A stretch of DNA of 64,000 bases from the NCBI GenBank assembly GCA_013387205.1, contig WARV01000010.1, forward strand, positions 765 through 64,764, written 5' to 3'. Position numbers and translations under genes: made by a program. This document shows, piece by piece, positions 5,066 through 52,900 of this stretch (position 1 is the stretch's first letter; every line of letters starts with the position of its first letter). Under the pieces are notes generated by a model. The model did no database searches. It was not told the origin of the DNA and worked only from the letters and a program-made list of their open reading frames with translations. This DNA comes from Patescibacteria group bacterium (GTDB lineage: Bacteria > Patescibacteriota > Doudnabacteria > UBA920).

Positions 5066-5134
5066 AATGGAATTCTTAAATTTATTACTTTAATATTATA
5101 CCATCCAACCTAAGTTTCTACGAACTAACACCTC

Positions 5135-5255
5135 TACCATACTTCTACTAAATACTAAAAGGTACTAAATATACTAAATCACATCAAATATACTTAATTG
5201 ATATCACTGCTAGTATATAGCTTTAGTATATTTAGTATTATTTCGTATTTAGTAG
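5135..5255. repeat. family A intergenic palindromic element (termini ctactaaatactaa / ttagtatttagtag)
   Basis: About 120 bp AT-rich element with perfect 14 bp terminal inverted repeats and internal complementary arms; fills the tkt/upstream-gene intergenic gap. Copies also at 18374, 18789, 19758, 32183 and 63707. Confidence 0.7.
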
Positions 5256-5260
5256 AGCTT

Positions 5261-6931
5261 TTAGTATCCGTTAATCCCAAACATGGATTTGGGCAATTCG
5301 AATTTGGAGATAATCCCCTGGTTTTGCTGGTTTCTTTTTAAAAAGACAATATTATAGCCATCCACGAACACCGGCGCCCATAACGGGTCATGAACCCGGC
5401 TGATTAGAAAGCTCTGCGCCCAAGGGGTAAAATCGCGGTGGGAAAAAATTATGACATTAAAATTTTCTTGTCTTTCCAGTTCCTGCCAGGCCTGCGCGTT
5501 ATCCTGGGCCGGGATATAGATTTTCTGCAAAAAATCCACGGAATAAGCTTCCGGGCGGTTATCAACGAAAACTTTTTCTTTGGGGAATAAATGGAAGATT
5601 AAATAACCGCCAATATCGTAGTCGTTAAAAATAGGGCCTTGAATATTATTTTGTTTGATAAATTCAGCCGAAGCATTCACGTAAGGCATTAAGCCAATTC
5701 CCATAGCCGAAGTCTTCTCGGAAAATTTCAGATAGTCGCGGTAGCCGCTGCCTAAAATAATAAGCAGGCAGATTGCAATAAAATACGCGTGACGAATATC
5801 AAGGGGTATCCTTGATCTGATCAAGGATGCCCCTTGATACAACGCATTGATGTTGTAGGCTAGAATAGGGATAATGAATAACCCGAAAAACGGAAAATTA
5901 CGGATGCCGAACACTGCCATCACCGAAACAATAAAAAAAATGGCAAACAGCGGCCAGGAAAATTTTTTCCTTTGGAAAAATATCACCAAAATAAAACTTA
6001 TAACCCCTATTGCCAGCACTGCTTTGAACAAAGAAAAATTCAACCCGGCCGTGTGGTTAAGCCTTTCCAAAAACCGGACGGACTGGTTTTCAACGACCAA
6101 GTAACCGTAGTTGTTAAAAATCTGCAAAGGATAGAGCGCGCCTTTAATGAAGTTAGGATTAACTAGCGCGGCTAAACCAGAGACTATACCAGTCAGCAAT
6201 AAATTCTTATCAAAAATTTCGTAAAAATCGCGGCCGCGATTTTTACGAAATCGGTTGTCTACCAGAGACCTTGTGGCACTGCTTACAAAAAACACAAAAA
6301 TCAGCAGCAAGCCCATAAAAAACCCGATGTGTAAGTTTACCCAAATAAGCATTAATACTGGCAATAAATACAACCATCGTTTTTTAGTTTTATCCGCGTT
6401 TATATCCGCGGCTGCAGTATCAGATCCGCGTGCAATCTGCGGATTATAATACACCCACAGCACAAAGAAAAATATCCCGGTAAAAAGATAGGTAAACATT
6501 TCCGGGCGCACTTCCGCGCGCGTGGCAAACAATGGCATAACCAAAACACTTGCAGCAATAGCTAAAAGCCAGCCGCCCATCTTTTTTGCCAGGAAAAAAT
6601 ACACGGCAAAAGTACTTATGCCGAGCAGGATGTAAAATGCTGACAGGCCGGAAAATCCCAAAATTTTCCATACCAGGAAAAACACCACCCCGCTCCCCCA
6701 GTGGTGGTTGATAAACGAAAAGCCAGGCTCAGTGTAGGAATAAAAATTTGTCTTAAAGATATTTTGAGAAAAACCGGAAAGTATAATTTCCCCATTCTTG
6801 ATATGCCTGCCCAAATCCGCGGTAGTCAAATCTATCTTCTGGGCAAAATAAAGCCCGCACCAAGACAATAGGATGATGACGCCTAAGATTTTAAGGATAT
6901 TTGATATTATTTTGGTTTTACTATTAGCCAT
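5261..6931 (-). CDS. polytopic membrane protein, glycosyltransferase family 39 / PMT_2 (ArnT-like) candidate
   Basis: 556 aa with many predicted TM helices N-terminally and a soluble C-terminal region. Carries an in-frame 42 bp nested palindrome at 5798..5839. Confidence 0.4.
   Translation of the reverse strand: MANSKTKIISNILKILGVIILLSWCGLYFAQKIDLTTADLGRHIKNGEIILSGFSQNIFKTNFYSYTEPGFSFINHHWGSGVVFFLVWKILGFSGLSAFYILLGISTFAVYFFLAKKMGGWLLAIAASVLVMPLFATRAEVRPEMFTYLFTGIFFFVLWVYYNPQIARGSDTAAADINADKTKKRWLYLLPVLMLIWVNLHIGFFMGLLLIFVFFVSSATRSLVDNRFRKNRGRDFYEIFDKNLLLTGIVSGLAALVNPNFIKGALYPLQIFNNYGYLVVENQSVRFLERLNHTAGLNFSLFKAVLAIGVISFILVIFFQRKKFSWPLFAIFFIVSVMAVFGIRNFPFFGLFIIPILAYNINALYQGASLIRSRIPLDIRHAYFIAICLLIILGSGYRDYLKFSEKTSAMGIGLMPYVNASAEFIKQNNIQGPIFNDYDIGGYLIFHLFPKEKVFVDNRPEAYSVDFLQKIYIPAQDNAQAWQELERQENFNVIIFSHRDFTPWAQSFLISRVHDPLWAPVFVDGYNIVFLKRNQQNQGIISKFELPKSMFGINGY
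5798..5839. repeat. 42 bp nested palindrome inserted in frame in the membrane protein gene
   Basis: Sequence atcaaggggtatccttgatc t gatcaaggatgccccttgata; encodes QGASLIRSRIPLDI. Confidence 0.65.
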
Positions 6932-6940
6932 GCCTGCAAA

Positions 6941-7072
6941 TTTCTAATTGACCTAATTAACCTAATTATTCTAAATAAATCCCAAAACCTAATGCCTAAT
7001 TTAGAAATTGGGAATTGGTGCTTGTTTAGGTTAATTAGAAATTAGAATAATTAGAATAATTTTAAATCCGCC
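6941..7072. repeat. family B intergenic low-complexity hairpin element (ctaatta / taggtta / attagaa words; terminus aattgacctaatta)
   Basis: Built from permuted short words arranged as imperfect inverted halves. Related copies at 43774, 44392, 45900, 48691, 51018, 52668 and 62843. Confidence 0.6.
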
Positions 7073-13050: not shown

Positions 13051-13080
13051 ATATTTTTTTATTTTTAATGATTATTTCTA

Positions 13081-13116
13081 TTCCCGGAAAACGAGCGATC
13101 GCTCGTTTTCCGGGAA
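13081..13116. repeat. perfect 36 bp palindrome ttcccggaaaacgagcgatcgctcgttttccgggaa (CGATCG core)
   Basis: Read directly; lies 10 bp 3' of the PaaX-like gene stop. Confidence 0.8.
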
Positions 13117-13126
13117 TGGGTTGGTT

Positions 13127-13681
13127 TTAAAGTTTAAAAAATTTTTTTATATTTTCATCATTATCAATCTGGTCAATACGAAAGATGCGTATATATTCAT
13201 CCAAACCTGTCTCGTATAAATACCTAATCGCATCACGATTTAAAGGATAAGGGTTTATATACACACTTCTCTGGATTTGCAAAAACCCATGATTCTTTAA
13301 CAAAATTCTCAACAATCTTCTTTTATCTTTTGCCTTCTCCGGTATGTCAAAAACCACCATCCTAAATTTTCCATCCCATTTCTCAGGTTTCTTAATATCA
13401 GCCTTTAATAACAATGTTTCCAAAACACCCTTTTTTGTTAATTTAACATACTGATAACCTTTTTCTTTGAAAATTTTTATCCAATGCTTCTGCTCCAAGG
13501 TATTTAAGATATTCAAATAACTTTTATAAGGCACATAGCCTGAAACCTGACGCTTGAAAAATGCCGTTTTGCTTTCAAAAGGTCGTGGAAATAAATCTAC
13601 CACGGCAAATAACGTCAGCAATAACTTTGCTGAATTGGTCAGCTCTCTTTCTTGTGTATTGTATTTTTTTCTTTTTTTCAT
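13127..13681 (-). CDS. winged-HTH + PaaX_C/Cas2-like domain protein (PaaX-like family), paralog 1
   Basis: The C-terminal motif W-DGKFRMVVFDIPE...R..LR..L...GFLQIQRSV..NPYP matches the PaaX C-terminal (Cas2-like) domain. Paralogous to 29713..30261. Confidence 0.5.
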   Translation of the reverse strand: MKKRKKYNTQERELTNSAKLLLTLFAVVDLFPRPFESKTAFFKRQVSGYVPYKSYLNILNTLEQKHWIKIFKEKGYQYVKLTKKGVLETLLLKADIKKPEKWDGKFRMVVFDIPEKAKDKRRLLRILLKNHGFLQIQRSVYINPYPLNRDAIRYLYETGLDEYIRIFRIDQIDNDENIKKFFKL

Positions 13682-13702: not shown

Positions 13703-13738
13703 TTCCCGGATTTCGAGCGATCGCTCGTTTTCCGGGAA
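13703..13738. promoter_or_regulatory. 36 bp near-palindrome ttcccggatttcgagcgatcgctcgttttccgggaa, 22 bp upstream of the paralog-1 start codon (candidate operator)
   Basis: Same arms and core as 13081..13116 with an aaaa->attt change in one arm. Confidence 0.6.
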
Positions 13739-13795
13739 TTGGTTTTTATTTTGATAATTTTAAAAGCACTATCAAAATATGGTAGTGCTTTACTT

Positions 13796-16687: not shown

Positions 16688-18355
16688 CTAGTAGTCCATC
16701 CCGCCCATTCCGCCTGGCATTCCGCCGGCTGGGGCTGGAGTTTTCGACTCAGGCTTATCAACGACAATAGCTTCGGTAGTAACCAAAGTTGATGCTATTG
16801 ATACGGCATTTTCCAAAGCCAATCGGGAAACTTTGAGAGGATCGACAATGCCGGCCTTCATCATGTCCTCAACAAGGCTATCCTGCCAGTTGCCGCTGTT
16901 CTTGGAAAAATCATAACCTGCATGGCTTGGACTCTTTTCATTCTGGATATAAGAAATAATACTGGTCGGTTCAATGCCGGAATTGGCCGCAATCTGACGC
17001 AAAGGAGCTTCCAAAGAATCGCGCACCACTTTGACTCCGGCCTTTTCGGCAAAAGACAAATTTTTGCTGAGTTCTTCGAGCTTGGGGGCAATGCGGACAA
17101 AGGCTGCACCGCCTCCTGCAACAATCCCCTCTTCCACGGCAGCTTTGGTGGCATTGAGCGCGTCTTCAATTTTGAATTTCTTGGCTTTCATTTCGGTTTC
17201 AGTGAAAGCGCCAACTTTAATCACGCCCACGCCTCCTGCCAAGCGCGCCATCCTTTCCTGCAACTTTTCCTTGTCAAAATCGGAATTGGATTCTTTGTAT
17301 TCTGCCTTAATCTGGTTTACGCGGTCTTCAATGGCTTTTTTGTCGCCCTGGCCGTCGACAATCGTTGTGTTTTCTTTAGTGGCAACAACCTTGCGCGCGC
17401 GACCGAGCTGATTAAGTTCGGTCTTATCTAATTTTAATCCCAAATCTTCGGTAACAACCTGGCCGCCGGTTAAAATTGCAATGTCCTGCAACATCTCTTT
17501 GCGCCTGTCGCCAAAGCCCGGGGCTTTGACAGCTAAAACGTTAAATATGCCGCGGATCTTATTAAGCACAAATGTCGCTAAGGCTTCGCCTTCCACGTCA
17601 TCGGCAATTATCACCAAATCTTTTTTGCCGCTCTGCGCGACTTTTTCCAAAATCGGCAAAATTTCCTGGATGCTGGAAACTTTTTTGTCTGTGATTAAAA
17701 TATAAGGATCTTCCCACACAGCTTCCATGCGCTCGGTATTGGTGACCATGTACGGATTGACAAAACCCTTGTCAAAGCGCATGCCTTTAACCACTTCCTT
17801 GTTAAGGCCAGTGGTCTGCCCTTCTTCAACAGTAATAATTCCTTCATGGCCGACCTGTTCCATCATTTCCGCAATAAGTTCCCCGACTTCGGAATCCAAA
17901 GAAGCGATGGTTGCTACCTGTTTAATTTCTTCCTTGGTCTTAACATCCTTTTTGACTTTCCTTAATTCTTCCACGACAAAAGCCGCAGCCTTGTCCATGC
18001 CCTTTTTAATCTCGTTAGCCTGCGAACTTGCCAATGCTGCCGCTTCAAAGGATTTTTCAATCATTTTCTGCGCCAAAACCGTTGCGGTGGTGGTGCCATC
18101 ACCGGCTTCTTCGTTGGTTTTGTTGGCGACTTCCTGGATTAAGGACGCGCCGACGTTTTCAAACTTGTCTTCAAGCTCAATATCTTTGGCCACGGTCACG
18201 CCGTCGTCAGTAATAGTCGGGCTGCCGAAGCTCTTGTCCAAAATCACGGCCTTGCCGGTCGGACCCAAGGTTACCTTGACCGCGTTGGCTGCCGCATCAA
18301 CTCCGGCCTTAATGGCCTTTTTCGCTTCAAAACCGTATTTGATAATTTTTGCCAT
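16688..18355 (-). CDS. groL: chaperonin GroEL
   Basis: 555 aa; canonical GroEL sequence ending in the GGM repeat tail. Uses a TAG stop. Confidence 0.97.
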
Positions 18356-18373
18356 AATATTTCTCCGAAATTT

Positions 18374-18456
18374 CTACTAAATACTAATTCTTACTAAAAG
18401 TACTAAATTTTACTTAAATGGCTTTCGTATCTTTAGTACATTTTCGTATTTAGTAG
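18374..18456. repeat. family A palindromic element in the groES-groEL intercistronic gap
   Basis: Termini ctactaaatactaa ... tatttagtagag. Joined to a conserved uucggagaaauAUG RBS segment. Confidence 0.7.
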
Positions 18457-18466
18457 AGATTATTAT

Positions 18467-18772
18467 TTATTCAACTATTGCTAACACATCAGATTCATCC
18501 TTTTCTTTTCCGACGTAAAGAATTTTGTATTCGTTCTTCTTGCCGTCTTCATCCATTTCAACTTCATCGCCGGCATACTTGCCAAACACTACAGTGTCGC
18601 CGACCTTAAGCCCTAAAGAGGCAATTTCGCTGCCGGTCCCCAGTTCCATAATTTTTCCCTGGGCTTTTTTTTCTTTATCTGCAGTGTCCGGCAAAACAAT
18701 CCCGCTCTTGGTTACTTCCTCGCTTGAGAGCTGTTTTACCAGGATCCGGTTTCCTAAAGGTTTTACTTTCAT
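18467..18772 (-). CDS. groS: co-chaperonin GroES
   Basis: 101 aa; canonical GroES. Confidence 0.95.
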   Translation of the reverse strand: MKVKPLGNRILVKQLSSEEVTKSGIVLPDTADKEKKAQGKIMELGTGSEIASLGLKVGDTVVFGKYAGDEVEMDEDGKKNEYKILYVGKEKDESDVLAIVE

Positions 18773-18788
18773 AATTTCTCCGAAATCT

Positions 18789-18899
18789 CTACTAAATACT
18801 AAAAGGTACTAAATATACTAAAATATCATCAAAAAGGCTTAATTGATACCGCTATTGATTTTTGATTTAGTATCTTTAGTATTATTTCGTATTTAGTAG
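18789..18899. repeat. family A palindromic element in the groES 5' UTR
   Basis: Same termini as the other A copies. Confidence 0.7.
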
Positions 18900-18935
18900 A
18901 AGCATTAATTTTCCTAATTTATTTTATAGCAACAC

Positions 18936-18962
18936 TTAGCACTCTGTCAAGCTGAGTGCTAA
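18936..18962. promoter_or_regulatory. CIRCE operator (HrcA binding site)
   Basis: Perfect TTAGCACTC-N9-GAGTGCTAA upstream of groES. Confidence 0.85.
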
Positions 18963-19008
18963 TATGTGATAAAAATCCTCTTTCCCCTGCGTCATGTTAT
19001 AATATCAC

Positions 19009-19747
19009 TATGAATGACAGTTATCAAGACGGCCAAGCTGCCCAAAAATATTTAAAATTCCTGGAGTCAAAAAACGGGAAAATACAGCAAAGCGTACTAA
19101 TTGACGCCCTTTTAAATGCGCTTCCCCAAAACCGGCAGCAAAAAATTTTAGATGCATGCTGCGGCTCTGGCTGGTTGACTTCCCGGCTTTTACAGGATTT
19201 TCCCGAAACTTCAGGCTTTGATTCTTCCAAAGAACTTATTGCTTTTGCCCAAAAAAAATATCCGAACATAAACTTTTCCATTGCCGATGCCGCAAATAAT
19301 CTTCCCTACGAAAAAGATTTTTTTGATGTAGTTATTTTAAACATGGCCGCGCCAGATTTGGAAAACCTGCACCAATCTTTCCAAAACCTTTCCGCCATAC
19401 TAAAAAACAATGGACGTTTTACAATGACCATCCCAAATCCTTATTACACATATCCGGTAGCGGTATGGAAGCGCAGCTTTGCGGATTTTATCCAATTTAA
19501 AAAACCTTCATTAAAAATTCAACTTCCGTATTTCCAGGCGCAGGCAATTGAAAGGGAGTTTGGCAAGGGCAATAAAATTTCTTCCCATTTCTATCCCCTG
19601 TCTTCGTATTTGAATGCGGCAAAAGATGCCGGTTTGAAACTGAAAGAAATTAAAGAAATTAAAAGCGTAATTGATAGCCAAAAATTCGACCTGCAATACC
19701 AGCTCTACAGGTATCCGTTGATATTATTGGTAGAATTTACGAAATAA
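19009..19747 (+). CDS. class I SAM-dependent methyltransferase
   Basis: Motif I ILDACCGSGWLT. The start is probably MNDSYQ; the track ORF starts earlier at 18956. Confidence 0.7.
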
Positions 19748-19757
19748 CCTCTTCTCT

Positions 19758-19868
19758 CTACTAAATACTAAAAAGTACTAAACATACTAAAGCTATATAC
19801 CAGTATTGATATCAGTTAAGTCTATTTGATGATATTTAGTACATTTAGTATTAATTAGTATTTAGTAG
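19758..19868. repeat. family A palindromic element between convergent genes
   Basis: Termini ctactaaatactaa / ttagtatttagtag. Confidence 0.7.
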
Positions 19869-19879
19869 AAAGATTAGTA

Positions 19880-20791
19880 TTATCCAAAAAACATCCTCAA
19901 CAAATCCTGCTGCTTACTTAACGGATGGAATGATAGTTCGTCATCTTTAACCACAATAAACTTTTCCTGGCGGATTTTGGGAAGCTGCCAGCTTTTTAAT
20001 ATTACCTCAAAACTCGCGCCAAACTTGTTATCAAAAATTCTTTCCAAAAATTTCTGGTATCGCGATGCTTTATCCTGGATGCAGAAAAACGTAACATTTG
20101 GAAAAAAAATATTAATCCAGCTTAGGTTTTTCATTTGAAAATCGTAAATAGCGCTGGCAAAAACCAAAGGGCGGAGCTTGGCATATTCCCAAGCCGTGTA
20201 TAAATTCCTAAAGCCATCCATTTGTTTTTGCCCCACTATATAATGGTTCAGGCAGAACCGGTTGGAAATTTTATTCCCATGCCGCCTTAAACCTAAAAAT
20301 TGGAAATAAGCCGTTATCAAAGTCCTTGCCAACCATAAAAATTTGTGAGATACGATAATGAACAAGTCGATATCTGAATTTGGTTTTTGAAATCCCTGTG
20401 CCTGGCTGCCGGTTAAACCTACTCCCCTTATGAACGGAATGAGCCTAAGGCCCGAAATGTATTTCCTGATTAATTTTTCCCTGATAATCCCGTAGCTATA
20501 ATTTTGCAGCCTTTTTTCTACAATTTCCCGCTTTCCCGGCAAATAATAAAATCCTTTATCATTTAAAACTTGGCTGCCGCACTCAGTATCCAAGCATTTT
20601 AAAACATCGCTGATTGATACTTGGCTGGAATTTTGTTGTAGATTAATATCATTTAATTCCCATTGGCTGTCGAGTGAAGTTTTAAGGTCTGTTGTTTCGG
20701 AAATTAAAAAACGATGGAGTTCCAAAAGGGTCAAAGGAGTCTCCATTAAATCAAAAAAACGCAAAGTTGAAAGGATACGATTTTTTAACAT
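19880..20791 (-). CDS. nucleotidyltransferase-domain protein (Pol beta superfamily)
   Basis: G-S-x9-13-D-x-D-like motif GSQAQGFQKPNSDIDLFIIV. Confidence 0.45.
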   Translation of the reverse strand: MLKNRILSTLRFFDLMETPLTLLELHRFLISETTDLKTSLDSQWELNDINLQQNSSQVSISDVLKCLDTECGSQVLNDKGFYYLPGKREIVEKRLQNYSYGIIREKLIRKYISGLRLIPFIRGVGLTGSQAQGFQKPNSDIDLFIIVSHKFLWLARTLITAYFQFLGLRRHGNKISNRFCLNHYIVGQKQMDGFRNLYTAWEYAKLRPLVFASAIYDFQMKNLSWINIFFPNVTFFCIQDKASRYQKFLERIFDNKFGASFEVILKSWQLPKIRQEKFIVVKDDELSFHPLSKQQDLLRMFFG

Positions 20792-22414: not shown

Positions 22415-23407
22415 CTACTTTTGGCATTTCGGGCAAAACGAACCGGTGCGTCCGCCAATCTTCATCGACTGGATTACTGTGCCGCAAACTTTACATTTCT
22501 CCCCTGCCCGGCCGTAAACGAAATGAAATTTTCCCATTTGCCCCCAAGAGCCATCTGTCCTTATAAAATCCCCAACCGACGAGCCCTTAGCTTTAATCGC
22601 CTGCTTTAAAACTTTTTGAATGTTTTGATAAATACCCCTTAATTCTTGATTCTTAATACTTGATACTTTCCTGTCCGGCCTGACTTTGGCATGAAATAAA
22701 ATCTCATCGCTATAAATATTGCCAATCCCCGCCACTACTTTTGGATCCATCAAAACCTGTTTGATTTTCCCCTTCGGACGTTTTTTCACGGCCGTGAAAA
22801 AACGTCCCCATATGAATTCTTTGTTTAACGGCTCGGGGCCGTATTCCGAAAGTTCTCTAACTTGATCAATCTCATTATCGCGCACCAATTTTAAATACCC
22901 AAACTTACGTACGTCGTTAAAATACAAAGTTGATCCATCTGTAAATTTAAATATCACGTGCGTGTGCTTGCTTGGCAACTGGACCAATGGAGCATTAGAT
23001 GAATTAATCAGGCGATATTTTCCACCAGTTTTTTGCCGCAGTTTTTTATCCTCAAAAATAAACTGCCCGGTCATTTTTAAATGTGCCAAAATAGAAAGCG
23101 ATCCGCTTGTCCGACGTAGCCTTGCATTGCCCGCCGAAGCTTTATGCGAAGGCTGGGGCGAAGTTGGAGATAAATCAAAAATCAAAAGTTTGGCCCTGCG
23201 CTTAACCGACAAAATCTTTTTTCCAATCAGCAAATCAGAAAATTTTTTTACCTGGCCATTTTTGACTTTCCTGACATTACTAACGACATCCGGTCCAATT
23301 TGCACCATCTTTGGCGCATTAACAAAAACCGACTTAATAGCCTTGTTTTTTAGCTTTTTATTTAGTTCATTTACAATGGTTTGGACTTCTGGGAGTTCAG
23401 GCATCAA
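22415..23407 (-). CDS. mutM: formamidopyrimidine-DNA glycosylase (Fpg/MutM) with an inserted repeat
   Basis: N-terminal MPELPEVQT; C-terminal zinc finger CKVCG...GRTGSFCPKCQ. An in-frame 26 aa GC-rich insert (SPTSPQPSHKASAGNARLRRTSGSLS) lies at 23086..23165. Confidence 0.85.
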   Translation of the reverse strand: MMPELPEVQTIVNELNKKLKNKAIKSVFVNAPKMVQIGPDVVSNVRKVKNGQVKKFSDLLIGKKILSVKRRAKLLIFDLSPTSPQPSHKASAGNARLRRTSGSLSILAHLKMTGQFIFEDKKLRQKTGGKYRLINSSNAPLVQLPSKHTHVIFKFTDGSTLYFNDVRKFGYLKLVRDNEIDQVRELSEYGPEPLNKEFIWGRFFTAVKKRPKGKIKQVLMDPKVVAGIGNIYSDEILFHAKVRPDRKVSSIKNQELRGIYQNIQKVLKQAIKAKGSSVGDFIRTDGSWGQMGKFHFVYGRAGEKCKVCGTVIQSMKIGGRTGSFCPKCQK

Positions 23408-28211: not shown

Positions 28212-29675
28212 TCACAAAAACATGCGGAACTCAACAGGCTGATTTTCATCTTTTTTGATGTTTTTTGCCGCAAAATGCAGGAGCGCATAAATGACGCCGA
28301 CCGCGCAGACCATCAGCCAAAACATCCATAAAGAAATATTTACATCGATGCTGCTAAAGCGCCAGGACGACAAAATAGCAACAGTTTTAATTATATAGAC
28401 AAGAAAAAAGTTGGCAGTATAGGCAAAACCTGGGCCGACAAAAGGCAGGACAGATAAAAAACCAAGGAGCATGGTCAAAGGCAAAAACGGCAAAATAAGG
28501 ACGTTGGCTAAAGGGGCGACCAAACTGATCCGGCCGAAAGTCAAAGCGATTAAAGGCAGCGTGGCAATGATGGCGGAAATGGTGGTAAAGAAATTATCCT
28601 TTAGCGAAAGCGGATTGATCCAGTCTTTTGTCAGCCTTGCAAACAAAGGATAAAAATAAACTATGCCCAAAGTTGCGGCAAAGGACAGCTGGAAGCCCAT
28701 GTCCCAAAATAAAATTTTGGGGTTTAGGATAAGCATAAAAAGGCCAGATAAAAACAGTGCCGGGACTACCGCATACTGCCTTCCAATCTGCAAAGACACT
28801 ATTAGCATAAAACCCATCAGCCCTGCTCTCAGCACTGATGCCGATGCCCCGGTTAAAACCACAAACCCGGCAATAACAGACAAGGTCAGCCAAAAACAAT
28901 TTTTCCTGCCGATATACTTGGCTAAAAAACTCAAGGCAGCAACGATTATGGTAATATTAAAACCGGATATGGCGATAATGTGCGTTGTCCCCGTTGCCTG
29001 GAAGTCATCAACCAAGTCCTGCGGCAAAGCTTTTTTCGCGCCAATGATTATGCCAAGCAGCAGGCTGCCTTGCGGCTCTTTGAACATTTTGCCGACCCTT
29101 TTGGTAAAAGCGTATTTTACGCGCAGCAAGCTTTCCTTAATAAAATTTTGCTGGTGATTTTTTAAAACCAATATTTTTGGATACCTCGATACGCCATAAA
29201 TATCGAACCTTTCCAAGTATTTTTGGTAATCAAAATCTTCAAAATTTTTCGGCTCGTCAATTTTTCCGTTAACCACTATCCAGTCGCCATAAAAATATTC
29301 CTGTGAGAGCGGCGCGGTTATCAGCAATCGTTGATTATAACCTTTGGGCAAAAATGTCAAAAGCTGCTTGTCTGTCCGGATATCTATATCTTCCACGATA
29401 TAACCTTCCAATTGATGTTTGCCGCCGAACATGCTTTTATATTCGTTTTCAATACTTGCCAAATTCAGCCTAAAAGCTCCCAAACACGCGCAAAATAAAA
29501 AAAGCGCCGCTAAAGTTAGCTTGTTTTTTTTGCTATAAAAGCTAATGCCGAAAAAGGCTATTAAAATTGCCCCGGCAACAAAAAGATGGAAATTTGGCAA
29601 AGAGAATTTGGATGCTGCCAAAATCCCCAAGGCAAAACTTATGGCGATAAATATAAAGACCTTGCTCTTGCTCAT
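28212..29675 (-). CDS. comEC: ComEC/Rec2 family competence protein
   Basis: DUF4131-like N-terminus plus a competence domain with HIIAISGFNITII. Confidence 0.75.
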   Translation of the reverse strand: MSKSKVFIFIAISFALGILAASKFSLPNFHLFVAGAILIAFFGISFYSKKNKLTLAALFLFCACLGAFRLNLASIENEYKSMFGGKHQLEGYIVEDIDIRTDKQLLTFLPKGYNQRLLITAPLSQEYFYGDWIVVNGKIDEPKNFEDFDYQKYLERFDIYGVSRYPKILVLKNHQQNFIKESLLRVKYAFTKRVGKMFKEPQGSLLLGIIIGAKKALPQDLVDDFQATGTTHIIAISGFNITIIVAALSFLAKYIGRKNCFWLTLSVIAGFVVLTGASASVLRAGLMGFMLIVSLQIGRQYAVVPALFLSGLFMLILNPKILFWDMGFQLSFAATLGIVYFYPLFARLTKDWINPLSLKDNFFTTISAIIATLPLIALTFGRISLVAPLANVLILPFLPLTMLLGFLSVLPFVGPGFAYTANFFLVYIIKTVAILSSWRFSSIDVNISLWMFWLMVCAVGVIYALLHFAAKNIKKDENQPVEFRMFL

Positions 29676-29692
29676 ATATAAACAAAAAAGCG

Positions 29693-29724
29693 TATCAAAA
29701 ATGAGCGGCCGCTCATTTTTGATA
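29693..29724. repeat. perfect 32 bp palindrome tatcaaaaatgagcggccgctcatttttgata (GCGGCCGC core), overlapping the stop of PaaX-like paralog 2
   Basis: Read directly. Confidence 0.8.
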
Positions 29725-30261
29725 CGGTAATTTAAACCTCTCTCTTAATTCCCTATCGTCATCCATCTGGTCCACTCTGATAATCCTGACAAAATCCATT
29801 AACCCTGTTTGTTTTAAATATTCTACTGCATGGCTATTTAAAGGATAGGGACTTATAAAAACACTTGCCTGCAATTTCACAAAATTGTTTTGCTTTAATA
29901 ACCTTCGAAATCTATTCCGTTCCCATTTAAAAGCTTCGGGAATATCAAACATTATCAATCTCCATTTATTATCCCAGGGTATAAAAGCGCGCAATTTTGC
30001 CATCAACATTAAATAATGAAGGTATCCATTCTTTGTTATTCTTAAAAACTTTTTATTGTTTTTCTCTACAACTTCTACATCATTACGTTTTTTTAACCTA
30101 GAGACTACCGTGCGATAATAATCCGGGTCGAAATTTTTAACTCTTCTGCTCCAGGCATATGGTGATTCAAAAGGAACAGGTAACATATGTGCCGCCTCCA
30201 CTAAAAACTGAAGGACACCATCCACTATCGATAAAGTTATGTTTTGAGTTTGTTTTGCCAT
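29713..30261 (-). CDS. winged-HTH + PaaX_C/Cas2-like domain protein (PaaX-like family), paralog 2
   Basis: WRLIMFDIPE...R.RFRRLL...NFVKLQASVFISPYP; paralog of 13127..13681. Confidence 0.5.
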   Translation of the reverse strand: MAKQTQNITLSIVDGVLQFLVEAAHMLPVPFESPYAWSRRVKNFDPDYYRTVVSRLKKRNDVEVVEKNNKKFLRITKNGYLHYLMLMAKLRAFIPWDNKWRLIMFDIPEAFKWERNRFRRLLKQNNFVKLQASVFISPYPLNSHAVEYLKQTGLMDFVRIIRVDQMDDDRELRERFKLPYQK

Positions 30262-30282
30262 ATGGTAATCTTCATTACTCTA

Positions 30283-30318
30283 TGTATCACTTTTGAGCGG
30301 CCGCTCAAAAGTGATACG
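30283..30318. promoter_or_regulatory. perfect 32 bp palindrome tatcacttttgagcggccgctcaaaagtgata, 22 bp upstream of the paralog-2 start (candidate operator)
   Basis: Same outer ends and core as 29693..29724; the inner arm has a compensatory aaaa/cttt change. Confidence 0.6.
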
Positions 30319-30332
30319 TTGTTATTTTAGTT

Positions 30333-30554
30333 TCAAATGATTATCCTAAAAACTTTCTGTTTGGATTTTTCGCCGCGCAAAAGGTTTACGCAGGATTTTG
30401 CCACTTTAAAATGTTCGGCCAGCGCTTCAATTACGGCCTTGTTGGCCTTGCCCTCAAGCGGCGGCTGACTGACGTAAACATGCATGGTGCCAAGCAGGTC
30501 TTTATCAATCCGGGGTTTTTTGGAATTAGGATGGACGATTACTGTAATATCCAT
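30333..30554 (-). CDS. DUF167 (YggU) family protein
   Basis: 73 aa; PNSKKPRI...G...V..PP..GKANKA..E.LA motif. Confidence 0.65.
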   Translation of the reverse strand: MDITVIVHPNSKKPRIDKDLLGTMHVYVSQPPLEGKANKAVIEALAEHFKVAKSCVNLLRGEKSKQKVFRIII

Positions 30555-31007: not shown

Positions 31008-31604
31008 TTATTTCATTTTTTTAAATTCCCAAAAACCCGCAGATTTATCATCGCCATGAAATCCCATGGCGCTTACCAAGGCCTTTATTTTTACCACCCT
31101 CCATTTCGGCTGATTTTGCTGAGGATCAATTAACCTAATTAAACCTTTTGAAGGATAAATGCGGTCGATTACGCAAACATGCCCGCCCTGGATATCATCA
31201 CCTTTCAATTTTCCATGGTCAAAACAGACCAGTATATCTTTATCTTTTTTTACTGCGTCCACGACAAATTTAACAATATCAGCTTCCGAGCAAAATTGGC
31301 TGATTGGGTGATATTGCATCCTTAATGGAATTTTAAGTTTTGGAAATACTATATTGGGGTGAAATTTTTTTAAATAAATTTGGGTGCCATAACCAGAAGG
31401 TGGTCTCTTGCCTAACCGTGGACGCCAATAAAGATTTTTGTTTTCTTTAGATACGACCAAACCTAAATGATATCCTAATAATTCTTGTGGAATCAAAGGC
31501 AGGCCGTGCCTATACATCACCATTGATATACAAGTCGGCACGCAACATGATTTTTGCTGAACCAACGGGATATATCTGCTATCTTTCGGAGTAATTTCTT
31601 TCAT
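31008..31604 (-). CDS. papain-like cysteine peptidase-fold protein (C39-like), tentative
   Basis: Candidate catalytic Cys (SCCVPTCIS) and His (GGHVCVIDRI) in the correct order; weak call. Confidence 0.3.
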   Translation of the reverse strand: MKEITPKDSRYIPLVQQKSCCVPTCISMVMYRHGLPLIPQELLGYHLGLVVSKENKNLYWRPRLGKRPPSGYGTQIYLKKFHPNIVFPKLKIPLRMQYHPISQFCSEADIVKFVVDAVKKDKDILVCFDHGKLKGDDIQGGHVCVIDRIYPSKGLIRLIDPQQNQPKWRVVKIKALVSAMGFHGDDKSAGFWEFKKMK

Positions 31605-32164: not shown

Positions 32165-32182
32165 GATAGTTCTTACATTCTC

Positions 32183-32294
32183 TACTAAATACTAATATAT
32201 ACGAAAGATACTAAAGCTTTATACTAATAGTGATATTAATTAAGTATACTTAGATGATATTTTAGTATATTTAGTACTAATTAGTATTTAGTAG
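32183..32294. repeat. family A palindromic element
   Basis: Termini ctactaaatactaa / ttagtatttagtag. Confidence 0.7.
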
Positions 32295-32299
32295 AAGTA

Positions 32300-32701
32300 T
32301 TAAAGGTTAGTGTTAATTTTTTCCAACTTCCATTCAATCTTGTCGCTGTTCTTTAACTGGTATTGTCCGGCTCCGACCGGCGCCAGCTGGCTGTTTATAT
32401 AAAAGGCCCAAAAGTTTTTGCCGTTTTCCGACATATTACCGTCAATGCCTATTACCATCTCCCCCAGGCCCTGATACGTCTTAGTCTGCACTTGGTGGGT
32501 ACTCTTTAACAAATCCAACGCAGTCGTTCCTTGTTTTACTGCATAATCAGGCTGGTTTAAATTTGAAGCCTGGACAGTCTGGTAAACCTTAATATCCTGG
32601 CTTTGCTGGCTGGTTTGGTTGCCGGGCTGCTTACTGCATCCAGCCGCTGCCAAAAAAATCAGTGATGATAATAAAAAAACCTTAAAGAAAGTTTTTCGCA
32701 T
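32300..32701 (-). CDS. DUF4430-domain lipoprotein (transcobalamin-like fold), tentative
   Basis: Signal peptide plus lipobox LAAAGC; C-terminal GKNFWAFYINSQLAPVGAGQYQLKNSDKIEWKL is typical of DUF4430. Confidence 0.5.
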   Translation of the reverse strand: MRKTFFKVFLLSSLIFLAAAGCSKQPGNQTSQQSQDIKVYQTVQASNLNQPDYAVKQGTTALDLLKSTHQVQTKTYQGLGEMVIGIDGNMSENGKNFWAFYINSQLAPVGAGQYQLKNSDKIEWKLEKINTNL

Positions 32702-43615: not shown

Positions 43616-43773
43616 TAATATCACCTCTTTCTTTAGTATAGACCACTGATACGCAGATAATCGCAGATTACACAGATGCAGTTATCTGCGTCATCAGTGC
43701 AAATCTGTGTATCTGCGGTCTTATTTCTTACCTAACTATAATATATTTCCCGATTTTGGTCAAACGGAACGAG

Positions 43774-43917
43774 AATTAACCTAATTATTCTAATTTCTAA
43801 TTAACCTAAACAAATCCCAATTTCTAACTACCCAATTTCCTAATTTCTGATATTTTAGTCATTGGTTATTAGTCATTGTTTAGACTAATTAGGTCAATTA
43901 GGAATTAGGTTAATTTA
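43774..43917. repeat. family B intergenic element
   Basis: Words ctaatta / taggtta; terminus motif cctaattgacctaattag. Confidence 0.6.
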
Positions 43918-44326: not shown

Positions 44327-44391
44327 GGAAGTTATGTTAATATTAATAGGTTCGTAATTATTTAATAATTATTTTTATTACAAAAATTGCA

Positions 44392-44542
44392 AATTCCTAA
44401 TTATTCTAATTGTTCTAATTGACCCCGGGTCAAGCCCGGGGCAGGCTCTAAATAATGTCTAATGACCCAATGTCTAAAATTTGGATATTAGGATTTAGGA
44501 TTTGTTTAGAAATTAGGTCAATTAGGTTAATTAGAAATTATC
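44392..44542. repeat. family B intergenic element with a GC hairpin core (ccccgggtcaagcccgggg)
   Basis: Read directly. Confidence 0.6.
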
Positions 44543-47265: not shown

Positions 47266-48693
47266 ATGACCAATCCAGACTTAAACAATAACCAGCCAAT
47301 TCGCCCGCCAAAAATTTCAGTAAGCAACACCGCCCAAGTCAGTTTGCTAAAAGGCCAGAAACAAAAACACGGGACCAGGAAAGCGCTTAAGCTTACTTTA
47401 TTGGCCATTTTGGCTGTTATTTTAATTTTGGGCGGAGTTGTTGCAAACCGGGCCGCTAACCTGTCGCAAAAAATCTTTGTCGGCCAAAAGATGACTTTTT
47501 TCCAAAAAATCAAGGATGTGTTTAAAGGAAGCGGCACAAAGCTGGTCGGAGAAGATTTGGGACAGATTAACGTCCTGCTCCTCGGGATCGGCGGCGAAGG
47601 CCACGACGGCCCATACCTTTCCGACACGATGATTTTGGCGCAAATCCGTCCTGATATCGGCCAGGTATCTTTAATTTCTATCCCCCGCGATTACCTGGTC
47701 CAGCTGCCGAACAATTTAGGCAGCAGGAAAATTAACGCGGCGTTTGCCGAAGGCTACTACAAAAATAAGGACTGGAACGAAGCCGGCACTTGGGCCAGGG
47801 AAGCCGTAGAAAAAGTCTCCGGCCAAAAAATCCCTTATTTCGCAGTGGTTGATTTTGCCGGTTTCGAAGATGCCGTCAATAAAGTTGGCGGCGTGGATGT
47901 TAACGTGGAAAGGGATTTTACCGACTACTCCTATCCCGATTCAAAAGACGGTTACTTGCCGCCAGTGACTTTTAAAAAAGGCTTGGAGCACATGGGTGGC
48001 ACGCGCGCTTTGCAGTTTGCCCGCTCCAGGCATGCGGCTGGCCCCGAAGGATCGGATTTTGCCCGCTCCCAGCGCCAGCAAAAAATCATACAGGCTTTCA
48101 AGGACAAAGCAATGAGCATGCAGACTTTGTCTGATCCTTCCAAAGTAAACGGACTGCTTGGAGTTTTTGCCGACCATTTCCACACCAATGTCAGTCCCGG
48201 GGAAATTTTCAGGATTTATAGCCTGGTTAAGGAACACGACATCCAAAATTTCATTTCCATCAGCCTGGATCCCACCACCAAACTCATCTGTCCGCAGATA
48301 CTGCCGGAGAACGGGGCTTACGTACTTACCCCGTGCCCGGGAAAAACAGACCAGGATATTAAAAACTATTTTGCCAATTCTTTTTCCATAGGAAAACTTT
48401 ACCAGGAAAAAAGCATAATCTGGATGTCTACAAGCAATCAGGACAAGGCAGCTTACCAAACAGCTGACCAGAAACTTAAAGACGCCGGGCTGACCGTCTG
48501 GGAACTGCCTTACAAAGGGCCAGTCCTATCGCAAAACGTTTTTTACCAAGCCAACATAAAGCCGGCAACTGCCGAGTTCATAAAGAACACGCTTGGTGCC
48601 ACCGAAGTCAACCTGCCTCCCCCAGGGATGAAAATTGACAAGAGCAAAGTAGATATTATTGTGATACTTGGAGGAGAAGAGCAGAAGAATTAA
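47266..48693 (+). CDS. LCP family protein (LytR-CpsA-Psr)
   Basis: N-terminal TM; LCP core NVLLLGIGGEG...SDTMILAQIRPD...ISIPRD. Confidence 0.85.
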   Translation: MTNPDLNNNQPIRPPKISVSNTAQVSLLKGQKQKHGTRKALKLTLLAILAVILILGGVVANRAANLSQKIFVGQKMTFFQKIKDVFKGSGTKLVGEDLGQINVLLLGIGGEGHDGPYLSDTMILAQIRPDIGQVSLISIPRDYLVQLPNNLGSRKINAAFAEGYYKNKDWNEAGTWAREAVEKVSGQKIPYFAVVDFAGFEDAVNKVGGVDVNVERDFTDYSYPDSKDGYLPPVTFKKGLEHMGGTRALQFARSRHAAGPEGSDFARSQRQQKIIQAFKDKAMSMQTLSDPSKVNGLLGVFADHFHTNVSPGEIFRIYSLVKEHDIQNFISISLDPTTKLICPQILPENGAYVLTPCPGKTDQDIKNYFANSFSIGKLYQEKSIIWMSTSNQDKAAYQTADQKLKDAGLTVWELPYKGPVLSQNVFYQANIKPATAEFIKNTLGATEVNLPPPGMKIDKSKVDIIVILGGEEQKN

Positions 48694-48905
48694 CCTAATT
48701 ATTCTAATTATTATTAACTCATCCTGTCCTTCTCTTTAGCAAAGAGAAGGAACCAGCTTAGCAAGGCTATAATCTAGCTTAGTATGTACTCCCTCTTTAT
48801 CATAAGAGGGAGACAGAGGGAGTTAGTATTAGGAATTAGGAATTGGGATTTGTTTAGTCCGCCAGCTGGCGGAAATTAGGTTAATTAGGTTAATTAGGTC
48901 AATTG
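48691..48905. repeat. composite family B element containing CTCCCTCTTT-loop-AAAGAGGGAG hairpins
   Basis: ctaatta word arms plus internal hairpins ccttctcttt-agca-aagagaagg and ctccctcttt-atcat-aagagggag-acagagggag. Related composites at 51018 and 52668 (the latter inverted). Confidence 0.6.
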
Positions 48906-48948
48906 TTATCAAAGAATTTTAAAGTAAATCATTAACATTATTCATCCC

Positions 48949-50286: not shown

Positions 50287-50307
50287 AAGTTATCCATACC
50301 ACACAAT

Positions 50308-50346
50308 ACAAAGAGACTCTTCGCTCAGAGCGAAGAGTCTCTTTGT
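50308..50346 (+). terminator. family E perfect 16 bp-stem terminator acaaagagactcttcgct-cagag-cgaagagtctctttgt
   Basis: Near-identical copy with a different loop at 60166..60203. Confidence 0.65.
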
Positions 50347-50484
50347 ATGCGATGCAAAAAATTACAGACCAATCTTCGGTTGGCCCATTTGTAATCAAAA
50401 TGAATTATTTGTTATAATTATTCTACAAACAAACCTTTCAGCGTTAATATCCGCGTAGCTGATCCGCGTTAAGATCAGAGGAAC

Positions 50485-51562: not shown

Positions 51563-52669
51563 ATGGTTTCCGAGCCCTCAAAAGAGGCCCTTTGCCTCCA
51601 CACCCTGAATTTATTGCCAGAACTAGGACCAACAAGGCTAAAGGCTTTAAAAAACCGCTTTGAGAACTTTTCTAATGCGTTTTCAGCTTCTTTTAACGAT
51701 TTTATTGATATCGGCTTTGAAAAAACACTGGCTGAAAAAATCACCACGCACCTAAAACAGGCTGATTTGGAAAAAGAAGTGCGAATTTTGTCTGGCGAGA
51801 ATATCAATCTGCTCCCTTTTTGGGACGAGCGCTTCCCCGAACTGCTTTTGGAAATTCCTAAATTCCCTGCATTGCTTTATTATAAAGGAATTATGGAAGA
51901 GCCGGACGAGCTTTGCGTGGCCTGCGTGGGGACAAGGATGATTTCCAATTATGGCCGTATAGTCACCCCCAATATTTTAGACCCTCTTATCGATGCCGGT
52001 GTTACAATTGTTTCCGGCATGGCTTATGGCGTGGACGCGCTGGCCCACCAAAGAACCATAGAAAGAAATAAAAGGACTATTGCGGTTTTGGGCGGAGGGC
52101 TAGACAGCAAAAGCATTTACCCGCGGAACCACGCACTGCTGGCGGAAAGGATTTTGGAATGCGGCGGCGCCATTGTATCCGAATACCCTCCGGGAACACC
52201 GAACTTTAAGCAGCATTTTGTGGCGCGCAACCGGATTATTTCCGGACTCAGCGTTGGAACAATTGTTATTGAATGCGATTTGCAAAGCGGCACGCTGATT
52301 ACCGCCAAGCACGCCCTGGACCAGAACCGTGCGGTTTACGCCGTGCCCGGGCCAATTTATTCCGAAACCAGCAAAGGGCCGAACAACTTAATTAAAATGG
52401 GCGCCAAGCTAATAACCGAGGCTAAGGATATTTTGGATGATTTGAATTTAGAGAATTTGCCCGAAGCCAAACAGAACCAGATGATTTTCGGAGACTCCCC
52501 TGCTGAGACCGCCGTGATAAAAATATTATCTTTTGAACCGCTGCACATTGACGAGCTGGTCAAGCAATCCGGCCTGGAAGCTGGCGAAGTTTCTTCAACG
52601 CTTGTCTTTTTGGAAATGAAAGGAAAAGTCAGAAACCTCGGCGGCCAGCAATATATATTGAGTAGGTAA
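51563..52669 (+). CDS. dprA: DNA processing protein DprA (Smf)
   Basis: Rossmann-like core GMAYGVDALAHQ...AVLGGGLD...ISGLS; C-terminal wHTH. Confidence 0.85.
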   Translation: MVSEPSKEALCLHTLNLLPELGPTRLKALKNRFENFSNAFSASFNDFIDIGFEKTLAEKITTHLKQADLEKEVRILSGENINLLPFWDERFPELLLEIPKFPALLYYKGIMEEPDELCVACVGTRMISNYGRIVTPNILDPLIDAGVTIVSGMAYGVDALAHQRTIERNKRTIAVLGGGLDSKSIYPRNHALLAERILECGGAIVSEYPPGTPNFKQHFVARNRIISGLSVGTIVIECDLQSGTLITAKHALDQNRAVYAVPGPIYSETSKGPNNLIKMGAKLITEAKDILDDLNLENLPEAKQNQMIFGDSPAETAVIKILSFEPLHIDELVKQSGLEAGEVSSTLVFLEMKGKVRNLGGQQYILSR

Positions 52670-52900
52670 ATTGACCTAATTAACCTAATTATTCCTAATT
52701 TCCGCCAGCTGACGGACTAAACAAATCCCAAATCCCAATTCCTAATACTAACTCCCTCTGCCTCCCTCTTTAGAAAAGAGGGAGGACATACTAAGAAAGG
52801 TTGGCTGATATATATCAATAAATCTTACTTAGCAAGTTCCTTCTCTTATTCTTAAGAGAAGGGCAGGATGAGTTAATAATTAGGAATAATTAGGTTAATT
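52668..52900. repeat. composite family B element (inverted relative to the previous two); its terminus abuts the dprA stop
   Basis: Read directly. Confidence 0.6.

Follow-up and report, generated by a model that had tools for sequence, protein, structure and literature searches.

A mini-PaaX gene between matching palindromes upstream of comEC, and its family in Patescibacteria

The 64,000-nucleotide stretch of contig WARV01000010.1 analyzed here (the window), from a Doudnabacteria genome of the Patescibacteria, contains two cassettes in which a small PaaX-like gene lies between a pair of long palindromes. We concentrate on cassette 2, located between a DUF167 gene and comEC, and refer to its palindromes as UP (upstream of the gene) and DN (downstream). 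The encoded protein, here called mini-PaaX, consists of a winged helix and a Cas2-like domain, without the C-terminal effector domain of PaaX. The layout recurs in a large family, with palindromes that have common cores, arms private to each gene, and matching copies at the two gene ends. On this comparative evidence the cassette is probably a self-bracketed, autoregulated module of the PaaX type, whose dimeric DNA-binding protein would act as a repressor or roadblock, and we hold this reading with some reserve.

The cassette and its protein

The two palindromes of cassette 2 (Table 1) have GTATCA and TGAGCGG·CCGCTCA in common (the dot marks the dyad), and their sole difference is a 4-nt block that is symmetric within each, AAAA/TTTT in DN and CTTT/AAAG in UP. 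The pattern TATCANNNNTGAGCGGCCGCTCANNNNTGATA (TATCA-N4-TGAGCGGCCGCTCA-N4-TGATA) has exactly two matches in the window (29693–29724 and 30285–30316) and none in any of 100 shuffles with three mismatches tolerated. UP ends 22 nt from the ATG of the gene (30261), and DN spans the last four codons (P-Y-Q-K) and the TGA stop, ends 15 nt from the comEC ATG (29675), and precedes CTTTTTTGTT on the minus strand. A first-pass annotation, made from the sequence alone, had quoted both palindromes, placed one over the last codons and stop and the other 22 bp from the ATG, and pointed out that the inner 4-nt block differs between the copies (aaaa versus cttt) yet is symmetric in each; all of this is borne out, and in its span of 29693–30318 the end coordinate is off by 1–2 nt. 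It had also called the gene PaaX-like and a second copy, in agreement with the domain match described below and with the paralogue of cassette 1. The NCBI product is 157 aa and begins at Met26 of the 182-aa form; the long form was used because its N-terminal 25 residues align across homologues and are modeled as a helix.

The cassette 1 protein is 36% identical to that of cassette 2 and its gene likewise lies between palindromes, at a position between nusB and the gene for a lamin-tail-domain (LTD) surface protein. DN is perfect and ends 29 nt from the ATG of the next gene (13050); UP shares those inner and outer blocks, but its two arms disagree in the spacer, ATTT versus TTTT. A related contig (JACRDK010000013.1, L026) has cassette 1 in matching synteny, rpmF-nusB-cassette-LTD protein, with the palindromes CTGGTCAAAATTGGACGATCGTCCAATTTTGACCAG (UP) and AACTGGTCAAAATAAGACGATCGTCTTATTTTGACCAGTT (DN). 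The core CGATCG of the window's cassette 1 is kept there but the arms are wholly different, and the UP and DN of L026 match one another.

Mini-PaaX of cassette 2 matches Pfam PaaX_M (PF20803), the central Cas2-like domain of PaaX, with E=1e-18 (67.6 bits, cut-off 24), and is just over the cut-offs of two Cas2 models, PF09827 (26.7 versus 23.8 bits) and TIGR01573 (26.2 versus 24.5 bits). Against the full-length PaaX equivalog of NCBIfam, TIGR02277, it scores only 32.7 bits (cut-off 264.55); PaaX_C has no Pfam match, and the 182-aa protein stops ~15 residues past the Cas2-like domain. Only PaaX_M and Cas2 models clear the Pfam cut-offs, with no transposase or recombinase domain among them; the protein has no match in PHROGs, and PADLOC returns Cas2 models only. 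An AlphaFold model with 22 homologues as input (predicted local distance difference test, pLDDT, 86; predicted template modeling score, pTM, 0.74) has helices at residues 12–26, 36–40 and 46–58 and a beta-hairpin wing at 62–75, corresponding to an N-terminal winged helix. A Foldseek search of the PDB gives E. coli PaaX (8a39) as the best match (E=2e-4), followed by a type II-A Cas2, Rv0674, and a Jannaschia PaaX-like protein. The Cas2 entries 5xvn, 5zyf and 2ivy are among the structural matches, and the winged helix-turn-helix proteins 1tbx and AspA match residues ~31–91.

PaaX, which in E. coli and Pseudomonas is a repressor responsive to phenylacetyl-CoA (PDB 8a39, 3l09; TIGR02277), has the same order of a winged helix and then a central Cas2-like domain, but mini-PaaX is 182 aa versus ~305–316 aa (PDB 8a39), and the C-terminal effector-binding domain is gone. 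The mini-PaaX gene has a site at each end, in the form of an uninterrupted perfect palindrome whose GC core is conserved, and there are several paralogues per small genome. No paa genes are present near the window cassettes, whose neighbors are comEC, DUF167, NUDIX, nusB and the LTD protein gene, or among the commonest neighbor families of the 80 family loci described below. Mini-PaaX also keeps Cas2 motifs that PaaX has lost: W-D-x-K-W-R...F-D-I-P-E and Q-x-S-V-F are conserved in the family, and E. coli PaaX has LLLSEG in that place. The Asp at the catalytic position of Cas2 and VapD, within the motif [FY]D[IVLMF], is found in 79 of 79 family proteins and is absent from E. coli PaaX.

With Cas2 and VapD, mini-PaaX shares a ferredoxin-like fold, a beta1 FD(I/M)P motif that includes the catalytic-position Asp, and a Q-x-S-V-(F/Y) strand, but the similarity is limited to the first ~40–50 residues of the domain, which in mini-PaaX is fused to a winged helix. 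Family proteins are annotated publicly as 'Cas2' or 'PaaX', and the succession of palindromic repeat, insert and palindromic repeat has a superficial resemblance to a CRISPR repeat-spacer-repeat unit. However, the 'insert' is the ~550 bp gene itself, and most empty cassette sites carry no repeat. The 64 kb window lacks a CRISPR-like array, the eight flanking window genes scanned include no cas gene, cas1 among them, and the 25 commonest neighbor families of the 80 loci do not include cas1.

Recurrence of the layout and anatomy of the half-sites

GTDB species representatives contain at least 579 family loci. Searched with a profile, a set of 1.84 billion representatives gave 4,136 clusters (50% identity) at E≤1e-10. 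Layout was analyzed in the best 80 loci, all of which are from Patescibacteria-type metagenome-assembled genomes, mostly Doudnabacteria, with several per genome. Near-perfect, zero-loop palindromes with arms of at least 12 nt number 28 at up to 120 nt upstream of the start codon, 44 from -40 to +100 relative to the stop, and 33 in the remaining ~550 kb; a second census, anchored solely on symmetric positions 1–6 and 12–16, counts 79 over ~27 kb of gene flanks and 10 over ~500 kb of background. These figures amount to a 57- to 146-fold enrichment at family genes. CGGCCG is at the dyad center of 50 flank palindromes, with CGATCG, CTATAG, CATATG and TGGCCA in smaller groups; the arms are private to each gene, and the UP and DN of one gene match. 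The layout is present in most close homologues, in support of the first-pass description of gene and palindromes as a single cassette. The distant homologues (L048–L080, ~190–285 aa) have a hydrophobic, transmembrane-like N-terminal segment before the conserved WDGKWR...FDI core, and their palindromes, where present, have the cores CTATAG, CATATG or TATATA in place of CGGCCG.

Generic genome palindromes, either bidirectional terminators or quasi-palindromes 'perfected' by template switching, could lie beside the gene by chance. The window does contain many other perfect palindromes, some of them terminator-like (10018, 16609, 31624, 50306, 60166), and palindromes of up to 58 nt exceed the footprint of a dimer; mutational symmetrizing probably contributes to these. 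The enrichment at family genes, the specific architecture of CGGCCG core and A/T spacer, the match of UP and DN within a gene and their difference between genes, and the joint coming and going of gene and palindromes make a chance association extremely improbable, and as the sole explanation it is close to refuted.

Among 33 pairs of UP and DN from the same gene, positions 7–11 from the dyad differ in 8–13 pairs each, whereas positions 1–6 and 12–18 differ in only 0–4 pairs. Composition outward from the dyad runs C-C-G-(T/C)-N-A, then five positions that are 85–95% A/T (7–11), and then variable sequence. Each half-site is therefore composed of an inner block (1–6), an A/T-rich spacer (7–11) and a gene-specific outer block (12–18), with the centers of the two blocks about one helical turn apart. 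The outer block compares in geometry with the E. coli PaaX operator TGATTC-N27-GAATCA, a wide inverted repeat with half-sites ~15–17 bp from the dyad, and PaaX represses its own promoter (PMC9493321). Half-site searches with the window's two site types found only the four arms of their own genes above chance, and no further targets. The first-pass suggestion that selection acts on hairpin or dyad symmetry and not on primary sequence is thus half right: symmetry is kept while arms change across orthologous cassettes, but the inner and outer blocks are conserved between UP and DN.

An RNA-level element would have the palindromes act as transcript hairpins (5' structure, 3' terminator or processing sites) that are bound or cut by the Cas2-like domain, such that the cassette mRNA is cut out of the operon transcript in the manner of Cas6 on repeat hairpins. 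Cas2 and VapD are endoribonucleases and the catalytic Asp is conserved, and the cassette sits within a co-directional operon. If transcribed, each palindrome is predicted to fold into a hairpin of -21 to -30 kcal/mol, with ~-23 kcal/mol (z ~-7; UP -23.5) for both palindromes of cassette 2, and DN of cassette 2 with its CTTTTTTGTT tail scores as an intrinsic terminator, with a GC-rich stem and U-tract on the sense strand. The form of an intrinsic terminator holds for cassette 2 but was rejected as a rule for DN in the family, where the next 12 nt are 39% T and T-runs are mostly missing; UP of cassette 2 has no T-tail on the sense strand. Spacers are fully symmetric in 58 of 79 sites and asymmetric in 21 (27%), with up to 5 mismatches in succession, chiefly A.A (22) and T.T (13), which keep the A/T richness and would open a hairpin into internal loops. 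No RNA wobble signature is seen (nine G.T versus ten A.C mismatches), symmetry is equal on both strands, sites also lie between convergent genes, and the N-terminal domain is a predicted DNA-binding winged helix. Because some spacers are asymmetric with A.A and T.T mismatches, wobble pairs are not in excess and T-tails are not general, a dyad-symmetric site recognized as duplex DNA, its spacer read by shape, appears favored over a hairpin, and we consider an RNA-level element distinctly improbable. Of the two possibilities in the 'hairpin or dyad' of the first-pass annotation, the dyad-symmetric duplex site is thus the favored one.

For a self-bracketed PaaX-type module, the truncated protein would bind as a homodimer to two 34–36 bp dyad-symmetric duplex sites around its own gene. 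The inner block would adjoin the CGGCCG center, the A/T spacer would be sensed by shape and not by base, and the gene-specific outer block would face the winged helices of a PaaX-type dimer. UP would lie over or just past the gene promoter and confer autorepression. A consensus promoter search places the best sigma-70-like match within UP in ~14 of 32 loci (for example TTGACG-17-TAAGAT in L047, ending 6 nt from the ATG); the matches are scattered and count as weak evidence. DN, over the stop codon and with a terminator-like hairpin before the comEC start, may serve as a terminator or protein roadblock, forming a 3' boundary. Such a boundary would shield the cassette and control how much transcription continues into comEC. 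The gene next after DN is convergent in 31 of 72 loci, so that DN as the operator of the next gene is out as a general rule. The cassette would be an accessory unit, open to loss when its UP and DN recombine with each other. Binding, dimerization, action as a repressor or roadblock, and an effect on comEC are all steps that we infer from sequence and predicted structure.

Cassette occupancy at the junction before comEC

The operon CobA-DUF4430-DUF6580-NUDIX-DUF167-comEC-PPIase-NDK is conserved around the cassette 2 junction, and the state of the DUF167–comEC junction was compared in 11 genomes. Three of them, the window and the sister genomes L087 and L094 (ComEC 87% identical), have the cassette, and the L087/L094 cassette protein shares 47% identity with that of the window. 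There is nothing at the junction in L083/L084, L086, L088 and L095, where DUF167 abuts or overlaps comEC; L085 has neither cassette nor DUF167, L092 has a solo palindrome without the gene, and L093 has a PemK toxin module. The presence of the cassette in relatives, to which the first-pass annotation had drawn attention, is therefore variable, with occupied, empty, solo-palindrome and PemK states, and apart from L092 the junction has either the gene with its palindromes or neither. A palindrome lacking the gene, named in that annotation as evidence against a cassette, was found this once. The L092 palindrome, TGGTAG-TAAAAAAAT-GCGGCCGC-GTTTTATG-CTACCA, is symmetric in its core and outer block and asymmetric in its spacers, and reads as a deletion scar and not as counter-evidence, because recombination between UP and DN would leave such a hybrid.

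A distance tree of ComEC shows that the occupied junctions are not monophyletic, and two histories would fit: an ancient cassette lost repeatedly, sometimes via its own repeats, or repeated entry at this junction. The cassette is dispensable or accessory at an otherwise conserved operon junction. Several cassettes other than cassette 2 keep their position across species with flanking genes that are only 50–80% identical. A metagenome scan with ComEC yielded only two distant loci (L081, L082), which are uninformative on synteny.

In L093 (~330–1270) a PemK toxin gene and a likely ribbon-helix-helix antitoxin upstream of it replace DUF167 and the cassette, and the occurrence of this module at the same site suggests that the junction before comEC collects small accessory modules. 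A 198-aa open reading frame (ORF) without a Pfam match lies between the DUF6580 and NUDIX genes of the window; it is missing from the syntenic operons of L083, L084, L092 and L094 and is a second lineage-specific insertion in the comEC operon. L085 has a small GIY-YIG gene (2617–2907) beside a ribonucleotide reductase gene, just upstream of its CobA-comEC region, which may encode a homing endonuclease.

The patchy, non-monophyletic occupancy of the junction (the window and L087/L094 occupied, a solo palindrome in L092, others empty) would also suit a selfish or mobile single-gene cassette. On this view the protein would work as a nuclease or recombination factor at specific sites, through a catalytic domain like that of Cas2 or VapD, and the palindromes would be its cognate ends, used for excision and (re)integration or for addiction-like maintenance, as REP are for RAYT transposases and subterminal hairpins for IS200. 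The PemK toxin-antitoxin module in the same junction of L093, the catalytic-position Asp that is invariant in the family and lost in PaaX, the Cas2 models over cut-off, the functionally unlinked neighbors, the several divergent paralogues per genome with private ends each, and the apparent swap of UP and DN arm types between L087 and L094 are all consistent with this. However, paralogues within a genome are at most 75% identical, with no near-identical pairs, which speaks against recent transposition, and several cassettes are syntenic across species, as noted above. No target-site duplication was seen, most empty junctions have no palindrome, and ordinary recombination of 34–40 bp repeats could explain the solo hybrid. 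There are no relatives in 2.9 million viral contigs and phage records and plasmids hold only canonical PaaX, such that no phage or plasmid carriage of the mini-PaaX family was found, and the protein has no transposase or recombinase domain. We regard a mobile cassette of this kind as unlikely.

In the REP/RAYT and IS200/IS605 systems, single genes that encode an HUH/Y1 transposase are flanked by cognate palindromic hairpins, which are imperfect and have hundreds of orphan copies. The mini-PaaX cassette is reminiscent of these as a ~600–700 bp unit with a small ferredoxin-like-domain gene within gene-specific matching palindromes and with orphan palindromes elsewhere, but it has no HUH/Y1 domain, its palindromes are perfect and loopless with a handful of orphans, and there are no near-identical copies and synteny is stable in the long term. 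Type II toxin-antitoxin modules are small, dispensable and autoregulated, with palindromic operators, and VapD toxins have the Cas2 fold. Mini-PaaX cassettes similarly come and go at operon junctions, with PemK at the same one in L093, but consist of a single fused gene, without a separate antitoxin and with a putative operator also at the 3' end.

Several observations weigh against an autoregulated repressor or roadblock. Between the L087 and L094 proteins identity reaches 93%, with only 3–4 conservative changes in the winged-helix region, all outside residues 36–81; even so, the outer blocks of their UP sites differ at three of seven positions in both arms (ACCACGA versus ACTGTGA; palindromes of L087, ACCACGATTTTAACGGCCGTTAAAATCGTGGT, and of L094, ACTGTGATTTTAACGGTCGTTAAAATCACAGT). 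Near-identical proteins with differing outer blocks point either to loose read-out, which would be roughly A-Y-R-G-T, or to arms exchanged between sites. Read outward from the dyad, the L087 UP block (GTGGT) resembles the DN type of L094 (ATGGT), and the left arm of the asymmetric DN site of L087 is the UP type of L094 (ACAGT), which looks like arm exchange between the two sites of a cassette and not like independent compensatory mutation. Most palindromes are perfect over 30–58 nt, including the uncontacted spacer; symmetry beyond the needs of a dimer footprint requires an extra symmetrizing force, which is probably also at work, with quasi-palindrome template switching and arm-to-arm or site-to-site conversion as candidates. 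DN also occurs before convergent genes, and is thus not simply the operator of the next gene; a 3' operator copy is unusual for ordinary regulators. A phase-constrained DNA loop is unsupported, as UP–DN distances (555–787 bp) have no 10–11 bp periodicity (Rayleigh p≥0.095). The neighbors of the 80 loci have no functional theme and include genes for aminoacyl-tRNA synthetases, DnaJ and a Na+/H+ exchanger. The invariant Asp hints at catalysis besides dimerization, and neither it nor the near-universal 3' copy is explained by autoregulation; without an effector domain, relief of repression is not explained either.

Orphan palindromes, other repeats and significance

Away from family genes there are only five CGGCCG-core palindromes in ~630 kb, three of which are inside coding sequences. 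One of these, in fpg, encodes the peptide GRFFTAVKKRP, and the site is palindromic in at least four other Doudnabacteria with species-specific outer arms (Table 1), with no insertion there by alignment. In L090, TTC...GTG is changed to TTA...GTT, compensated at wobble positions, and a palindrome with such compensation across species argues that the DNA symmetry itself is maintained within a housekeeping gene. Another paralogue may target this site, or it may be a quasi-palindrome undergoing repeated 'perfecting'. A bolder possibility, to which we give little credence, is that the cassettes are an unrecognized excisable selfish single-gene element of Patescibacteria whose Cas2/VapD Asp is used to nick or recombine its own palindromes and related sites such as that in fpg, and would be akin in function to the repeat-handling machinery ancestral to CRISPR adaptation or to PaaX regulators.

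Two further features of these coding regions are noted. The 556-aa ORF with the second orphan palindrome of the window also contains a 43-nt near-palindrome, TATCAAGGGGTATCCTTGATC-G-GATCAAGGATGCCCCTTGATA (5797–5839). Fpg has a Ser/Pro/Arg-rich insertion of variable length in its N-terminal domain (23089–23157, residues ~83–105), which lengthens in ~10-aa steps among homologues of 308, 318, 329 or ~345 aa and may derive from inserted GC-rich repeat DNA.

Table 1. Cassettes, orphan palindromes and other features, with positions in the window unless a locus is named. The dot marks the dyad.
Feature	Position	Strand	Sequence or description
UP palindrome, cassette 2	30284..30317		GTATCA-CTTT-TGAGCGG·CCGCTCA-AAAG-TGATAC; 17-nt arms, zero loop, perfect
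mini-PaaX gene, cassette 2	29713..30261	minus	ORF, 182 aa
DN palindrome, cassette 2	29691..29726		CGTATCA-AAAA-TGAGCGG·CCGCTCA-TTTT-TGATACG; 18-nt arms, zero loop, perfect
DUF167 (YggU-like) gene	30333..30554	minus	next gene upstream of cassette 2
comEC	28212..29675	minus	Competence and DUF4131 domains; next gene downstream of cassette 2
UP palindrome, cassette 1	13703..13740		inner and outer blocks as in DN; spacer asymmetric
mini-PaaX paralogue, cassette 1	13127..13681	minus	184 aa
DN palindrome, cassette 1	13080..13117		ATTCCCGG-AAAA-CGAGCGAT·CGCTCG-TTTT-CCGGGAAT; 38 nt, perfect, core GAGCGATCGCTC
198-aa ORF	31008–31604	minus	between DUF6580 and NUDIX
Orphan palindrome in fpg (22415–23404, minus)	22776..22807		GGACG-TTTTTT-CACGG·CCGTG-AAAAAA-CGTCC; perfect
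fpg palindrome, L016	3533–3562 (L016)		TCCAATTTTTTACGGCCGTCAAAAATTGGA
fpg palindrome, L089			TTTTTTCACGGCCGTGAAAAAA
fpg palindrome, L090			CTTTTTAACGGCCGTTAAAAAG
fpg palindrome, L091			TAACTGACTTTTTCACGGCCGTGAAAAAGTCAGTTA; 36 nt
Orphan palindrome in 556-aa ORF (5261–6931, minus; no Pfam match)	6216..6251		ATTTCGT-AAAAA-TCGCGG·CCGCGA-TTTTT-ACGAAAT; 36 nt; encodes RFRKNRGRDFYEI
9-nt motif arrays (families D1, D6, D7, D11)	6944–7068, 43772–43906, 44390–44540, 48679–48911, 52667–52900, 62829–62974		intergenic
TACTAAA/TTTAGTA arrays (families D2–D5; I1)	5130–5270, 18359–18471, 18774–18914, 19743–19883, 32167–32309, 63708–63815		intergenic

The window is also rich in repeats of other kinds. Arrays of a 9-nt periodic motif (AATTAACCT, AATTATTCT or AATTGACCT, and complement) are intergenic and often form inverted pairs around gene starts. 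A second intergenic family has TACTAAA or TTTAGTA units every ~10–11 nt, with inverted halves around a TTGATATCA-like center, and these look like multi-site binding arrays. An inverted repeat, TTAGCACTC-N9-GAGTGCTAA (18923–18975), which we take to match the CIRCE (HrcA operator) consensus, lies between a minus-strand gene pair (16688–18772) and a plus-strand gene at 19010; the pair encodes 101 aa and 555 aa and is a groES/groEL candidate by size alone. Two perfect palindromes ~10 kb apart at gene ends (50306–50348 and 60166–60203) have the arm ACAAAGAGACTCTTCGCT in common and may be terminators or sites of another factor.

The fold, the family and PaaX-like operator logic are already known. 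In the literature searched, we found no description of the mini-PaaX family or of its palindrome-bracketed layout; one candidate, TTHA0973 ('PaaR'), was dropped as a TetR-type protein. The truncated architecture with Cas2 motifs and the near-universal long perfect palindromes with a common core and private arms appear to be undescribed, as do the concerted evolution of the palindromes, the solo-palindrome scar and the conserved intragenic site.

Patescibacteria, the candidate phyla radiation (CPR), have tiny genomes with very few recognizable regulators, and the mini-PaaX family is large there. These genes are often labeled 'Cas2' and should not be counted as CRISPR components. Patescibacteria are thought to depend on the ComEC DNA-uptake channel, and cassette 2 places a candidate control element right before comEC. 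The palindrome in fpg illustrates how such DNA-level constraints can shape protein-coding sequence. With long palindromes at both ends of each member's gene, the family offers a testable map of proteins to sites in an opaque lineage, and a natural system for the co-evolution of a protein with four half-sites, for the upkeep of perfect symmetry, and for loss through a cassette's own repeats.

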